40,988 nucleotides of DNA, from the UHGV virus genome UHGV-0200626; one strand, 5' to 3'. A program made the position numbers and the translations under genes. This document shows positions 4,902 to 40,948 of this stretch, one piece after another. Each line of letters starts with the position of its first letter. Within the stretch, counting starts at the first letter, position 1. This DNA is from a virus. Below the pieces are notes generated by a model. That model was not told the origin of the DNA and ran no database searches. It was given only the letters and a program-made list of their open reading frames with translations.

Positions 4902-5153
4902 CACTTACCTCGCTGTAACCTGCTTACTTGTACGATGACCAGCTGCGAAAAGCGCAACTTCTGGCAGGCAGACAGTACCACTCTTCAAATCAGCCTCCTT
5001 TTTCTTTTTCTATATCAAAAAGCTGCTTTGCTTTTGCGACTAAAAGCAAAAAAGCCTTCTCGCTAATGAGCAGCATTGCCGTTCATCCTGAACCCGCCGC
5101 ACTCCCGACGCATGGTTTAATGTCGCGCCGTTCGACATGGCTTAACTATATCC

Positions 5154-5312: not shown

Positions 5313-6044
5313 TTAGTAATCAACTACAGACCACCAGAAAATTCTTCCGATGATCTCAATGTCACTTAGATTCTTTTCTTCTTGTGGGTATTCCAGTGAG
5401 TTAAAGCTTCTAATGCTTACCTTGTCAGGCCCTGTTCGAAAGAGAATCTTAATGCGTTTCCAACCGTTCTCGTTAATGGCGTAAATCTTTCCGTCAACTA
5501 TTTTCTTATCGTTGGTGTTAACAGCAACTGTTGTTCCATCAGGAATGTTTGGCTCCATGCTGTTGCCACGAGCCGGAAAACAAACAACCCCGCTTCCATC
5601 ACTGTTCGCGCCAACTCTGCGAAGGGTTGATTTGGAAAAGCGCAACATAAAGCCGTTGTGATCTTCATCAATCACCCGACCATCCCCGCATGCAAACTCA
5701 ATATCTTTAAGGTAAGGAATTTCAACTTCATCACCTCTTAAAGGCGTTCCTCCATCCCATGGGTCCAAACATCCCCACGTGCTTTCATGAGGAATAGAAG
5801 ATTTTGGATCATAAGGTTCAACTCCCTCATCACGCATTGGCCCAGTTCCATCGGAAAGCCATTCCGTACGAACTCCAAGCACTTTTGATATTTCAAAAAG
5901 TTTGCGCGTATTGCGTGTTTTTCCAGACGTAAGTTTCCAGACGCTTGGCTGAGACATGCCAACAGCATTGCCAAGAGAAGCCTGAGTAAACCCAGCCTGA
6001 TCCATCGCGTATGTAAGCCTTTGAGAAAAAGTATCTAGTTTCAT
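5313..6044 (-). CDS. cI: CI-like repressor (N-terminal HTH, C-terminal S24 LexA-like peptidase domain)
   Basis: 243 aa; HTH-like segment (GFTQASLGNAVGMSQPSVWKL), C-terminal GNSMEP serine motif and a downstream Lys typical of S24 autopeptidases; divergent from a cro-like gene. Confidence 0.8.
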   Translation of the reverse strand: MKLDTFSQRLTYAMDQAGFTQASLGNAVGMSQPSVWKLTSGKTRNTRKLFEISKVLGVRTEWLSDGTGPMRDEGVEPYDPKSSIPHESTWGCLDPWDGGTPLRGDEVEIPYLKDIEFACGDGRVIDEDHNGFMLRFSKSTLRRVGANSDGSGVVCFPARGNSMEPNIPDGTTVAVNTNDKKIVDGKIYAINENGWKRIKILFRTGPDKVSIRSFNSLEYPQEEKNLSDIEIIGRIFWWSVVDY

Positions 6045-6383: not shown

Positions 6384-6502
6384 TAAAGCAAATTTTTATA
6401 CCGAACGGCCCGGTATACGGTCGGGTGCCCGGCGTGGTCAAGGATGACTGTCAATGGTGCACGATAAAAACCCAAATTATTTACCTATGGAGATAGTAAG
6501 AA

Positions 6503-6831: not shown

Positions 6832-7476
6832 ATGACATACGAAAATGACAAATTCCAGGTTCTGAAGAGCATGAAGGTGCCAGATGATTTTAAATCAAAT
6901 GGCTTTGTTTATGTGCTTTCTAATGAGTGCATGCCAGGAATTTATAAGATTGGGATGACTAAGCATTCACCAGAAGTTAGGGCTAAAGAAATTTCAGCCT
7001 CTACTGGCGTTCCTAAGCCATTTAAGGTGATAGCAGCCTTTCATTCAAATAATCCCGCATCAGATGAAAAACTCATTCATAAAGCCTTTGCAAAAGAGAG
7101 GCTTAGTGATAATCGAGAGTTTTTCAAGCTTGAAGATAATGAGCTTTCTGAATCTCTAAATGAAATAAGGGCGCTGGTTGGCCCTGAAAGAAATGGCGAG
7201 ACGGCAGAATACGCAATTTACGACTCATTCATTTCTTTTCGCCATGAAAATGAGCTTGATCTTAATGAGGAGCTTATAGAGCAAGGTCTGGGTAGTGTAG
7301 TTGGTCATCTTCCTGCGGTGAAAAATTTCCTTATTCGCGCCGGAATTGATTACGCGAAGCAACTGATAAGCAAATATAACTCATCGATAGTTATTAATAC
7401 AGATGGCAGTGTGGTGATGGTTAAGTCTCTTGAAGCCCAATGCTTTGATGCGGAGGTTGGAAATGAGCCTGGCTGA
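6832..7476 (+). CDS. T5orf172 (GIY-YIG-like) domain protein, accessory gene
   Basis: 214 aa; N-terminal GFVYVLSN...GIYKIGMTKHSPEVRAKEIS...PFKV...EKLIHKAFAKERL...REFFKL fits the T5orf172 pattern recalled from memory; AGGAG 5 nt upstream of ATG; inserted between cII and O. Confidence 0.55.
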   Translation: MTYENDKFQVLKSMKVPDDFKSNGFVYVLSNECMPGIYKIGMTKHSPEVRAKEISASTGVPKPFKVIAAFHSNNPASDEKLIHKAFAKERLSDNREFFKLEDNELSESLNEIRALVGPERNGETAEYAIYDSFISFRHENELDLNEELIEQGLGSVVGHLPAVKNFLIRAGIDYAKQLISKYNSSIVINTDGSVVMVKSLEAQCFDAEVGNEPG

Positions 7477-8305
7477 AGTATTTTACCTGTCGAAGAGTGA
7501 ACCTGTTGAACAGGAGCGAAGAGTGGCTGATATCGATGATGGTTACACCAGATTCGCTAACGAGCTGCTGGAAGCTATCGCAAGTGCTGATTTAACCGCT
7601 CGCCAGTTGAAAGTTATGCTGGCCTACGTCCGGAAAACATATGGATTCAATAAGAAAACAGATCGAATAGCCGATGAGCAAATTGCTCAGTTAACAGGAC
7701 TGTCAAGGCAGAATGTTAACAAGGCTAAAAAAGAACTGATTTCAATGAATTGCCTGTTTATGGATGGAAATCAAATCGGTGTAAACAGTGAGGTATCTGC
7801 GTGGCAATTCAGCAAGTGTCTCCAAGTTAGCAACTTTGTCTCGAAGTTAGAGACAAAAAATGTCTCCAAATTAGAGACACTCAATGTCTCGAAGTTAGAG
7901 ACACACAAAAGACATTCTTTAAAGACAAAAGAAAATATTAATAAACCCCCTATATCCCCCAAAAAAGTTTCTCAGAAGTTCGACCCGCTAGAAACAGAGT
8001 TGCCTGATTGGTTATCAGCAGAAACATGGTTGTCGTGGGTTACCTATCGCAAGGAGATAGGTAAGTCGATCAAGTCTAAGCAAAGTGTCACTCAGGCTAT
8101 CAACGTTCTAAGCAGAAGTCTGGAGAAGGGATATACACCTGAAGAAATTATAAACCAGAGCATCGCCAGTGGTTGGCAGGGGATTTTTGAACCCAAGACT
8201 CCAAAGGGGAAATCTCAACCGAGGCCGCAGCAGCGAGCTATGCAGGAAAACTTTGCCGCCAAAGATTACGGGCAAACTGAAATGCCTTCATGGGCGCAGG
8301 AGTGA
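7463..8305 (+). CDS. O: Replication initiator, lambda O-like
   Basis: N-terminal region (RRVADIDDGYTRFANELLEAIASADLTARQLKVMLAYVRKTYGFNKKTDRIAD) parallels lambda O; GGAGGT upstream of ATG 7463; contains iterons. Confidence 0.8.
   Translation: MSLAEVFYLSKSEPVEQERRVADIDDGYTRFANELLEAIASADLTARQLKVMLAYVRKTYGFNKKTDRIADEQIAQLTGLSRQNVNKAKKELISMNCLFMDGNQIGVNSEVSAWQFSKCLQVSNFVSKLETKNVSKLETLNVSKLETHKRHSLKTKENINKPPISPKKVSQKFDPLETELPDWLSAETWLSWVTYRKEIGKSIKSKQSVTQAINVLSRSLEKGYTPEEIINQSIASGWQGIFEPKTPKGKSQPRPQQRAMQENFAAKDYGQTEMPSWAQE
7817..7903. repeat. Origin iterons inside the O gene
   Basis: Three 19 bp inverted-repeat units (7837..7855, 7861..7879, 7885..7903) plus a degenerate copy at 7817..7835, followed by an AT-rich stretch to about 7975; they encode the repeated peptide VSKLET. 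Confidence 0.65.
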
Positions 8306-8307
8306 AT

Positions 8308-9201
8308 ATGAATACGACAAATGGTTACAATCTGGCACTGCAAAGGCAACTTGTAGACTCAAAAATCAATGACATTTCTGATCTGAAACAGAAACTTGAG
8401 TTTAGCAAAATTGGATCAGCATCAGATGGAATGTCAGTTACCAGCACAGTGGAAGAGTGCGAGAAACACGGTAAATATACTTCCTATGAGAAATATCTGA
8501 CCATCTCAGGAAAAAGAATTACTTCAAGTAAATCTGAGTGCCCACAGTGCCTTGAGGAGAAAATTCGTAAGAAAGAGATTGAACGTGAGCAGGCAGAACA
8601 AAGAGCAAGACAATCAAAAATTGAATATTTGTTGAATTCTCTCAATATTCCAGAGAGGTTCAAAAATTGCACTCTTCAGAATTATGAGCCTGTTAACGAT
8701 GATGCAAAGCGAGTTCTTAAGGTATGCCAGGCATATGCCAGTAAGTGGCCTGAACGCCTTCAGAAAGGTGGCGGACTGGTCATGTGTGGTAAGCCTGGAA
8801 CTGGAAAGAACCACCTTGCACTGGCTATCGCTAGGCACGCCATTATCGAGCATCAAAGCTCTGTGATATTTACCACTGCGTTGAAAATTGCCAGAGAGTA
8901 CAAATCAACATGGTCTAAGGCCGCAACCAGAACTGAAGAAGAAGTCATTAGGCAATTTACGCATCCTGACTTGTTAATAATCGATGAGGTTGGCGTGCAG
9001 TTCGGCAGTGATGCTGAAAAGCTAATCATGTTCGAAATTATCAACACCAGATATGAATACATGAAGCCAACAATCCTGATTAGTAATCAGAGCAAAGATG
9101 AACTTTCGGCATTCATTGGTGAGCGTGTTATTGACAGGATGAATGATGGCGGAGGGTGCACTCTTGCGTTTACATGGGATAGTTACAGGAGCAGATCGTG
9201 A
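8308..9201 (+). CDS. DnaC/IstB-like AAA+ helicase loader
   Basis: Walker A GKPGTGKNHLALAI and Walker B LLIIDEVG; ATG 8308 follows CAGGAG and overlaps the O stop. Confidence 0.8.
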   Translation: MNTTNGYNLALQRQLVDSKINDISDLKQKLEFSKIGSASDGMSVTSTVEECEKHGKYTSYEKYLTISGKRITSSKSECPQCLEEKIRKKEIEREQAEQRARQSKIEYLLNSLNIPERFKNCTLQNYEPVNDDAKRVLKVCQAYASKWPERLQKGGGLVMCGKPGTGKNHLALAIARHAIIEHQSSVIFTTALKIAREYKSTWSKAATRTEEEVIRQFTHPDLLIIDEVGVQFGSDAEKLIMFEIINTRYEYMKPTILISNQSKDELSAFIGERVIDRMNDGGGCTLAFTWDSYRSRS

Positions 9202-9488
9202 CTGGAAAAGAAATCATCCTGGAATATCTGAAAACTCATGAACAATTCTCCCCACATGAATTAGCACTGATTACCGGAATACCAAATAACAGAATCGCTC
9301 AAGCAGCAAGGCATATGGTGAAACAAGGGCATTTGAGTGTTGTTGAGCGTAAGTGGAAGACGGTTATTTATGCGAAACGCAAAGTGAAGAAGGAGCCAAT
9401 TAAAAGAAATCCAGATGGTACGGGGTGGGTATGTGCAAATCCAATGACGGCGTTTATTAATAGGGCGCTTATGGAGGTAAGGCAATGA
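9198..9488 (+). CDS. ren: Ren-like protein
   Basis: 96 aa; N-terminus MTGKEIILEYLKTHEQF...ITGIPNNRIAQAARHM resembles lambda Ren (MTGKEAIIHYLGTHNSF...) from memory; same position after the replication genes. Confidence 0.45.
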   Translation: MTGKEIILEYLKTHEQFSPHELALITGIPNNRIAQAARHMVKQGHLSVVERKWKTVIYAKRKVKKEPIKRNPDGTGWVCANPMTAFINRALMEVRQ

Positions 9489-9754
9489 ATAAAAAACAAT
9501 TAGCCATTCTCGAAAAGGCATGGGATGCACAAATATCATGCGCTTTGAAAGAACAGGCACTACCAATAATCCAGACCAAATCGAAAATAGCCAGGCAGTT
9601 ATGCGATGACGGATTCCTGAACGAAGTTGAGATTACGCGCCAGATGGTAACGTTCAAAGGGTATGAGATAAATCATCATGGTATAGCGGCGTATTGCTCC
9701 CACCTTCCTGATGACGTTGACATTGATGAAATGGAAAGGGAGATGAAGCAATGA
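9485..9754 (+). CDS. Hypothetical phage protein
   Basis: 89 aa ORF with ATGA overlap to the upstream gene. Confidence 0.45.
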   Translation: MNKKQLAILEKAWDAQISCALKEQALPIIQTKSKIARQLCDDGFLNEVEITRQMVTFKGYEINHHGIAAYCSHLPDDVDIDEMEREMKQ

Positions 9755-9778
9755 TCATCTACATCACTGAGCTAATAA

Positions 9779-9811
9779 CAGGCCTGCTGGTAATCGCAGG
9801 CCTTTTTATTT
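9779..9811 (+). terminator. Intrinsic terminator between replication module and nin region (tR2-like)
   Basis: AGGCCTGC-tggtaatc-GCAGGCCT perfect 8 bp stem followed by TTTTTATTT. Confidence 0.6.
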
Positions 9812-9839
9812 GGGGGAGAGTAATTGGAGGCTTTAAGAA

Positions 9840-10055
9840 ATGAGTTCGATGACTGAGCTTGTCCGCGCCGACTTTCAGGAGAACATTGGTCGTGCAAAGC
9901 GGTACTGGTCTGCTTCCAGACTTCCGACTGGCGAGAGACAGAAAAACGCCCCTAAGCCACGTATCTATCCGCGTGACCGTGTTCTTCGACGGTTGTCCAA
10001 ACTCAACAATGAGTTTCAGCGCAACAGAATTATTCGGAGTCTGGATTTAAAGTAA
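9840..10055 (+). CDS. Hypothetical phage protein
   Basis: 71 aa ORF in the nin region. Confidence 0.4.
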   Translation: MSSMTELVRADFQENIGRAKRYWSASRLPTGERQKNAPKPRIYPRDRVLRRLSKLNNEFQRNRIIRSLDLK

Positions 10056-39889: not shown

Positions 39890-40948
39890 TTAAATATCAT
39901 CAAAATTAACACCTGGCGCAGATAGTTGATTAATTTCATTTTGATATTTCGCCTGGCGATTTTGAAGTCTTTTTTCAACGTTATCTTCGAGATCCTTAAA
40001 GTCTTTGTATTTATTTTCAGGATGGTCAACGTCAACTTTGTTAGCGAATAAATTAGAAATTATTTCTTTTACATTATCGCGTCTAAATTTTGCATCGTCC
40101 ACTTGAAAATTATATCTTATTGCTCGACCTAAACGTTTAAAAACTTCGTTAGGTTCTCTCAGTCTTTCCCCGTTGAGCTCGTTTATAACCTGATGATCGG
40201 AACCTGTTGCAAATGATTCTGCCATGATAGCTTTACTGCTTTCAAACCACGCTGAAGCACTCCTGGCGTTTTCACTACAATATTGGGTGAGACTATCACC
40301 ATTAATACGAATTCCTCTTTGAATGTGGTAGTCGTCCTGATCGTAGTAACCGAGAGATAAGTAATCATTTCCGTTTTTATTTTTAATTACAATAGCGAGA
40401 GAGTCGCCTTTTTTATCTTTACCGTACCAGGTAAATAAGTCCGTTGGTTCGCTTTTCCCGCTCTCATCAAATTCCGTTACCGTATGTCTGAGTTTGTGTG
40501 ATATCTTATCGAAGATAAAACCAGGATCTCCATCATATATTTCTTTTAATGCGCTGAAGATCATTTCCTTGTTATTGATATCATGAGTCTTCTCAACTAT
40601 GTTGTCATTAATGATAGTACGGACGAGTTCTTTGTCTTTATAGTTCGCAGGTAATTCTATTGGTTCTTGGTTGTCGATACCAATAGTAATATGGTCTGTA
40701 TCATTGGAGTCAATATCAATATAAGTAACTGAGGAATTATTAATATTAAATCTATAAGGATCGTCGTTTACTCGTATGGCGTTTTTTATAAGCTCAAGTA
40801 GATGTTTAATACAGGTGCTTATTCCTTCCTTACCATTAAAAAGGTTTTTGAACTCTTGTACTAATCCATTAACTTCATCATTGTTATTTTCATTGATGGA
40901 TTCTGGGTAAGCTGCGCTGGTATTGTTGATTGAAATAGATGGTAGCAT
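39890..40948 (-). CDS. yfdF: Uncharacterised protein, YfdF-like
   Basis: 352 aa, Asn/Lys/Asp-rich, in a visibly AT-rich segment; length and position match E. coli yfdF. Confidence 0.55.
   Translation of the reverse strand: MLPSISINNTSAAYPESINENNNDEVNGLVQEFKNLFNGKEGISTCIKHLLELIKNAIRVNDDPYRFNINNSSVTYIDIDSNDTDHITIGIDNQEPIELPANYKDKELVRTIINDNIVEKTHDINNKEMIFSALKEIYDGDPGFIFDKISHKLRHTVTEFDESGKSEPTDLFTWYGKDKKGDSLAIVIKNKNGNDYLSLGYYDQDDYHIQRGIRINGDSLTQYCSENARSASAWFESSKAIMAESFATGSDHQVINELNGERLREPNEVFKRLGRAIRYNFQVDDAKFRRDNVKEIISNLFANKVDVDHPENKYKDFKDLEDNVEKRLQNRQAKYQNEINQLSAPGVNFDDI

Follow-up and report, generated by a model that had tools for sequence, protein, structure and literature searches.

The intrinsic terminator tR2, which lies between ren and ninB in phage lambda, is among the best-studied intrinsic terminators, and transcriptional read-through in lambda-like phages depends on N or put. 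Annotation of the ninA frame that overlaps the terminator goes back to early sequence studies of lambda's ninR region and of the genomes of P22 and HK97, and the lambda ribosome profiling of Liu et al. from 2013 is reportedly cited as evidence that NinA is translated. The nin region has been described as a tight chain of ATGA-interlinked genes of which ninA is the first (Kroger & Hobom, 1982, and Cheng et al., 1995, both as represented in a paper that cites them). The nin genes have been described as nonessential, the nin5 deletions removing the interval from ren-ninA through ninI.

The relationship between translation and termination at tR2 has been analysed in reporter constructs, in which the terminator reaches a maximal in vivo efficiency of ~0.9 (Li et al. 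2016, PMC4824070). It was established in that work that lambda tR2 is nearly fully repressed if a translated gene ends a few base pairs upstream of it, and partly repressed if it is situated late within a coding sequence. When preceded by the natural lambda leader, tR2 has an efficiency of ~0.8 at 18 nt, ~0.8-0.9 at 18 nt or more, and maximal beyond ~27-30 nt; past a threshold of 27 nt, a ribosome positioned at the stop codon no longer suppresses termination. The same study showed that a newly initiating ribosome is unable to reach the polymerase over a distance of 30 nt. In a reporter, the initiation site of lambda NinA was found to be active ('not weak'), and mutation of the NinA ribosome-binding site or AUG shifted tR2 efficiency by only ~10%. 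Transcripts ending at tR2 represent non-stop mRNAs for the NinA ORF, and the output of the upstream reporter was approximately halved (Li et al. 2016, PMC4824070).

The stretch of DNA analysed here, referred to as the window, is the 40,988-nucleotide DNA of the UHGV virus genome UHGV-0200626. It contains a mini-ORF of 30 codons at 9751..9843 (+), which starts with ATG and whose 30-aa product is given as MIIYITELITGLLVIAGLFIWGRVIGGFKK in the ORF listing. This ORF is interlinked with its neighbors on both sides: its ATG (9751-9753) shares bases with the TGA stop of the upstream gene (9752-9754), forming an ATGA at 9751-9754, and its own TGA (9841-9843) shares bases with the next ATG (9840-9842), forming a second ATGA at 9840-9843. 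The upstream gene (9485..9754, +) encodes an 89-aa protein of PHROG 2239 and terminates ~25 nt before the hairpin described below, while the downstream gene (9840..10055, +), encoding a 71-aa protein assigned to DUF7301 / PHROG 1785, carries its own Shine-Dalgarno (SD) sequence, GGAGG, at 9826-9830. Within the end of the upstream gene, 8 nt 5′ of the mini-ORF start, an SD-like GGGAG (9738..9742, +) gives an anti-SD duplex of -8.4 kcal/mol. Residues 1-26 of the peptide match phrog_5907 on a 27-position profile (E=5.4e-15), 284 public contigs carry exactly this 30-aa peptide, and its lambda counterpart goes by the name 'NinA protein' (UniRef K7PHM1). In addition, the annotations of P22 and Nil2 both show a ninA CDS at the homologous position, and searches of Pfam and NCBIfam returned no family matching the peptide. 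Judged by these homologies, the 30-codon ORF is the ninA already known from lambda-like phages (lambda NinA, P22 ninA, PHROG 5907).

Inside ninA, a hairpin is located at 9780..9803 (+), with stem AGGCCTGC/GCAGGCCT and loop TGGTAATC (8 pairs, 6 of them G-C, around an 8-nt loop). It is followed by the U-run TTTTTATTT at 9803..9811 (+), which reads L-F-I in the ninA frame. A terminator scan returned this single site, and RNA folding places the 9780-9803 stem in both the MFE and the centroid structures, the isolated hairpin having a folding energy of -15.7 kcal/mol. The generic scan taken alone is not significant, as it found one site versus 2.7 expected in shuffled sequences, and it is consequently homology that identifies the terminator as real; the z-score of the whole-region fold (-0.96) is uninformative, since the flanks dilute the hairpin. 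Regarding that homology, the 'TR2-cut' oligonucleotide aacaggcctgctggtaatcgcaggcctttttatt has exactly the sequence of the hairpin plus U-run (Li et al. 2016, PMC4824070 supplement). Furthermore, the homologous place is annotated as 'tR2 terminator' in Nil2 and as 'terminator, similar to phage lambda' in P22. By this identity in sequence, the hairpin at 9780-9811 represents lambda's tR2 intrinsic terminator in this phage, and it is predicted to stop unmodified polymerase and to be passed by antiterminated polymerase. Rfam holds no family for the element and yielded only sub-threshold matches, to Trp_leader (24.1 bits, with a gathering score of 41) and DicF (19.6 bits); both identities were rejected on these scores.

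The preliminary description of this locus had placed a hairpin with a T-run at 9779..9811, at the end of the replication module and inside a 30-codon ORF overlapping the upstream stop. The ORF listing gives identical coordinates and peptide, and the hairpin coordinates proved correct within 1 nt (stem 9780-9803, U-run to 9811). The assignment to the end of the replication module is likewise borne out, given that an O-like initiator gene (7430-8305, +), a DnaC-like loader gene (8290-9201), a Ren-like protein gene (9198-9488) and the PHROG 2239 gene precede the terminator. The terminator inside an ORF is therefore a real feature, and tR2 together with ninA in this phage is already known biology. 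The gene order along the region is cro, cII, O-like, DnaC-like, Ren-like, PHROG 2239, terminator, DUF7301 and ninB-like, which puts tR2/ninA where the replication genes give way to the nin region of the early-right operon. As an additional observation, the O-like gene contains three tandem repeats around 7830-7910 (+) of the window, with the protein-level reading VSKLET, which probably are origin iterons lying, as they do in lambda O, within the gene for the replication initiator.

Between cro and cII, at 6394..6480 (+), the phage carries an HK022-type putR antiterminator RNA site with 98.9% identity to HK022 putR; the homologous site of phage O276 (98.9% identity) is annotated as 'putR: antiterminator RNA'. 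A related putL-like sequence is observed on the minus strand around 5065-5145, to the left of the cI gene. From the presence of such a site, antitermination in this phage would apparently be RNA-mediated rather than N-mediated, and putR is likely to be the route by which RNA polymerase could pass the terminator at 9780-9811.

The terminator and the beginning of ninA travel together as a 70-bp mosaic module at 9751..9820 (+), comprising the leader, the hairpin, the U-run and GGGGGAGA, which is common to lambdoid phages with unrelated flanking genes. A blastn search against 50,697 phage records detected the element in 405 of them, and in most of these the homology starts exactly at the ATG at 9751 and ends after GGGGGAGA at 9820, irrespective of the flanks. 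In lambda, the stretch 40567-40636, directly after ren and before ninB, is 97% identical to 9751-9820 of the window. The element is also widespread in complete genomes of E. coli (1978/5426, at 2897 places), where RefSeq (PGAP) annotates the flanking genes only and leaves the ninA ORF unannotated. Three pattern scans of IMG/VR yielded 263 contigs with the element; the comparative analyses covered 247 hairpin-anchored contigs and 206 leader-anchored sequences. In each of these 206, a T-run follows a hairpin whose folding energy is -11.6 kcal/mol or better. Exact copies of tR2 were also seen in 20 loci (L125-L144) of bacterial assemblies assigned to Pseudomonas, Oceanobacillus, Bradyrhizobium, Shewanella, Nocardioides and others; in these unrelated bacteria it often sits on contigs of ~48.4 kb or on low-coverage contigs, and most of these loci look like contamination of the assemblies with lambda DNA, so that they contributed no further diversity.

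Behind one and the same 29-nt leader, two unrelated hairpin alleles are found. Type A corresponds to lambda tR2 (-15.7 kcal/mol), and type B to GGGGCTATTTACACAGTAGCCC followed by T6 (-12.6 kcal/mol). Of 5 distinct substitutions in the stem of type A, 4 preserve pairing as G-U (p=0.003). Type B matches HK97 gp56 and is present in 109 IMG/VR contigs and 15 phage records (e.g., L034 at 9165-9185 (-) and L100 at 5419-5439). Both alleles have an equal length from the ATG to the TGG codon, and the frame is open in each of them. Column-wise covariation between the two alleles was considered and rejected, because their loops differ and there is a half-base offset between their stems, which points to replacement of one hairpin by the other and not to gradual covariation; the one compensatory pair, a T-A to C-G double change, is seen only inside the type B lineage. 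In many NCBI records of E. coli, Salmonella and Shigella, the 32-aa peptide of type B, MTIYITELITGAIYTVALFYWIKNEGDPDGHR, bears the name 'histone H1', evidently a propagated misannotation.

The possibility that the frame is not conserved in related phages, raised in the preliminary description as the outcome that would speak against a coding role, is not what the relatives show, since the frame is intact from the ATG to the hairpin in 241 of the 247 hairpin-anchored contigs. This conservation constitutes weak evidence by itself, given that all 70 bp of the module are conserved as a terminator at the nucleotide level. The ninA ATG is present in all 247 contigs, and the ORF is broken in the remaining 6, five by a frameshift and one by a nonsense change, the hairpin being intact in every one. 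The five frameshifted contigs (e.g., L202) have in common a 1-nt deletion in ninA codon 2 (ATGACATCT...) that leads to a stop after 7 codons, and in the other contig (L172) codon 7 is changed from GAG to TAG.

The start and the end of the frame provide additional information. Seven unrelated genes are found upstream of ninA, namely two DnaB-type helicases whose C-termini differ, a 626-aa primase-helicase, lambda Ren, a Ren-like protein, PHROG 2239 and a 92-aa family, and an SD-like motif is found at the end of each, 6-8 nt ahead of the ninA ATG. The anti-SD duplex energies in these seven contexts range from -5.9 to -11.6 kcal/mol, with 6.0% of random positions reaching -6.0, and the joint chance probability of the seven motifs is ~5e-9 if the contexts are assumed to be independent. 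Moreover, the upstream gene's stop codon overlaps the ninA ATG (ATGA, TGATG) or abuts it (TAAATG) in 7/7 contexts. At the other end, for 14 of the 16 gene families that follow the module, the ninA stop falls between -9 and +11 nt from the start of the next gene, including six exact A/GTGA overlaps and four NTGNNTRA overlaps, compared with 5 of 16 for a control frame (Fisher p=0.003; both the grouping into 16 families and the control count are hand tallies). In one contig, ninA is fused in frame to the next gene. Since these phages are recombining mosaics, neither the junction families nor the upstream contexts are fully independent.

Taken together, the start signals, the stop placement, the variable tail of the peptide (see below) and the two hairpin alleles of equal length argue for a coupling bridge more clearly than the existing annotations do. 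It is therefore probable, as far as can be judged from the comparison of sequences, that ninA represents a translated bridging ORF in the ATGA-interlinked nin chain, laid over the antitermination-controlled tR2, and that it is the act of translating, and not the product, that would be under selection. The preliminary description had considered two options, a micro-membrane peptide encoded across a terminator or a fortuitous ORF. The second is probably incorrect given the start signals and the stop placement, the first finds no clear constraint at the protein level, and the bridging ORF is a third reading that had been missed.

The model that would interconnect these elements is the following. 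Unmodified RNA polymerase arriving from pR would stop at the U-run, leaving the nin and late-regulator genes off, while polymerase modified by put RNA (by N in lambda) would pass tR2. The 29-nt leader would set the upstream stop ~25 nt from the hairpin, close to the 27-nt threshold, and we infer that this spacing is what would keep the terminator efficient despite the tight packing of the genes. A fresh ribosome loaded at the ninA AUG, ~29 nt before the hairpin, would be unable to catch the polymerase, and therefore translation would barely affect termination. On read-through transcripts, ribosomes leaving the upstream gene would restart at the overlapping AUG, melt the hairpin and stop at or beside the next start, so that the nin chain would be translationally coupled with no untranslated gap. 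On terminated transcripts, the ninA frame would lack a stop and non-stop complexes would consequently arise. Three observations stand against the bridging ORF. The downstream gene has its own good SD (GGAGG, 9826-9830), and coupling may for that reason be unneeded; the broken ORFs in 6/247 relatives mean that the ORF is dispensable at least in some prophages; and the conservative changes in the leader would fit weak selection on a hydrophobic peptide equally well.

The same six broken ORFs would also fit if the ORF were fortuitous, its frame persisting through the conservation of the terminator without meaningful translation, and if the 'ninA' annotations were historical artefacts. An open frame is in fact unsurprising here, because a G+C stem and a U-run rarely hold stop codons. 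The module is conserved alike at the three codon positions, with distinct changes in the leader in a proportion of ~9:4:8 by hand count, and the omission of the ORF by RefSeq PGAP in E. coli points in the same direction. We nevertheless find this explanation unlikely, as it would have to account for an SD-like motif and a stop/start overlap behind seven unrelated genes (~5e-9), for a stop placed non-randomly at the start of the next gene (p=0.003) and for the activity of the lambda NinA start site in a reporter (PMC4824070). It would not predict either that stops interrupt both of the module's remaining plus-strand frames, as a by-eye check of the sequence revealed.

Conserved start signals are also compatible with ninA being a functional single-pass membrane micro-protein, with a hydrophobic N-terminal helix and a basic C-terminus, which would act in trans while the terminator merely shares its DNA. 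Residues 1-21 are indeed hydrophobic and are followed by basic residues in most variants (GRGKS, GRVNRG, IKNEG), and type B keeps the length, the open frame, the hydrophobicity and the W codon (GAIYTVALFYW vs GLLVIAGLFIW). Nevertheless, the hydrophobic core is dictated by the codons of the stem and the U-run, GLLVIAGLFIW being the in-frame reading of GGCCUGCUGGUAAUCGCAGGCCUUUUUAUUUGG, and the transmembrane-like hydrophobicity is largely a by-product of these codons. Across leader codons 2-10, 8 synonymous and 13 nonsynonymous distinct changes were counted out of 21 and 60 possible ones; the resulting dN/dS of ~0.57 leans towards a constrained peptide but, with 21 distinct substitutions being too few for a decision, is not significantly below 1 (p=0.16). 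The common replacements in the leader are all conservative (I/V, L/I, I/M), which fits weak selection on a hydrophobic peptide and the structure of the genetic code equally, since first-position changes in NUN codons default to such replacements.

The C-terminal part of the peptide is variable in sequence, length and frame. Among the relatives, ninA encodes between 24 and 32 aa, there are at least 10 distinct tails and the frame changes between close relatives, so conservation of the full-length product (C-terminus and length) was not found among them. The closest relative of the phage, Bas106 (L004), has the same flanking genes and one extra base after GGGGGAGA, because of which its tail reads GNWRL-stop instead of the RVIGGFKK (VIGGFKK-stop) of the window. 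This single-base difference, situated at 9812-9830 of the window, moves the ninA stop out of the ATGA overlap and into a TAA located 6 nt ahead of the following ATG. The variable tail, a dN/dS not significantly below 1, the frameshift and nonsense alleles present in some relatives, the lack of any Pfam or NCBIfam family, and the description of the nin genes as nonessential, with no function or phenotype reported for this one, make a membrane micro-protein a rather improbable explanation.

The terminator-in-ORF arrangement might also be viewed as a built-in non-stop device operating through tmRNA/SmpB or, alternatively, the peptide as a functional membrane micro-protein, a pair of proposals that we consider a long shot. 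Since the terminated ninA frame has no stop, ribosomes restarting on it would run off the 3′ end and call in tmRNA/SmpB. If this were the case, decay of the O-P-ren message would be triggered, ribosome-rescue capacity would be consumed, and a MIIYITELITGLLVIAGLF(I)-tag species would be expected. Some lambda-P22 hybrid phages depend on trans-translation, on a basis described as 'not yet understood' (PMC2862035), and a non-stop device could contribute to this dependence, although the link to ninA is speculation. Should the idea hold, a small regulatory twist would be added to a textbook operon.

Finally, it is very improbable that ninA functions as an attenuator-like switch, in which a ribosome on ninA close behind the polymerase would block the folding of tR2 and translation would set the efficiency of termination: the almost full repression of tR2 by a translated gene ending a few base pairs upstream (PMC4824070), a native ATGA that could permit restart without delay where the published reporter had a stop codon 48 nt upstream, and the weak Rfam likeness to Trp_leader (24.1 bits) would favor it, but that score is to be set against a gathering score of 41, silencing the NinA start shifted termination efficiency by only ~10% (PMC4824070), folding predicts the terminator stem as the sole stable element with no alternative antiterminator pairing, and read-through depends on N or put, putR being present in this phage.

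As regards the translated bridging ORF, the value of the analysis as a discovery is small, and its practical value resides in a confident tR2 and ninA label for this phage. When compared with the leader-peptide attenuators of trp and pyrBI, ninA likewise consists of a short ORF by an intrinsic terminator, where the distance between ribosome and polymerase can affect folding. In these attenuators, however, the ORF ends before the terminator, whereas ninA runs across tR2; unlike them, ninA has neither an alternative antiterminator hairpin nor regulatory codons, and the effect of NinA on tR2 amounts to only ~10%. The HK97 gp56-type allele is closer, as its leader ATGACCATCTACATCACTGAGCTAATAACA, its ATG-to-TGG distance and the presence of a hairpin and U-run within an open mini-ORF are as here; it differs in its hairpin GGGGCTATTTACACAGTAGCCC (-12.6 kcal/mol) and in its peptide core, GAIYTVALFYWIKNEG..., the window carrying the other allele. 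With respect to the ninA of lambda and P22 (K7PHM1, PHROG 5907), the first 23 residues are equal save for T2I, and the upstream ATGA overlap and the internal terminator are common to both. The proteins diverge in length, 30 aa in this phage, 26 aa for the lambda and P22 proteins and 25 aa for that of Nil2, and in their tails, RVIGGFKK here versus RGKS or RGKT. At the level of the whole locus, this phage and lambda differ in their flanking genes (PHROG 2239 and DUF7301 here, ren and ninB in lambda), in their antitermination systems (HK022-type putR here, N/nut in lambda) and in the peptide, which carries T2I and a different tail here. The two share the terminator itself, since the hairpin, loop and U-run are identical to those of lambda tR2 (between ren and ninB, ~40596-40630) and the leader agrees at 97% over 70 bp, as well as its position, where the replication genes end and the nin region starts, and the ORF in which it is embedded.
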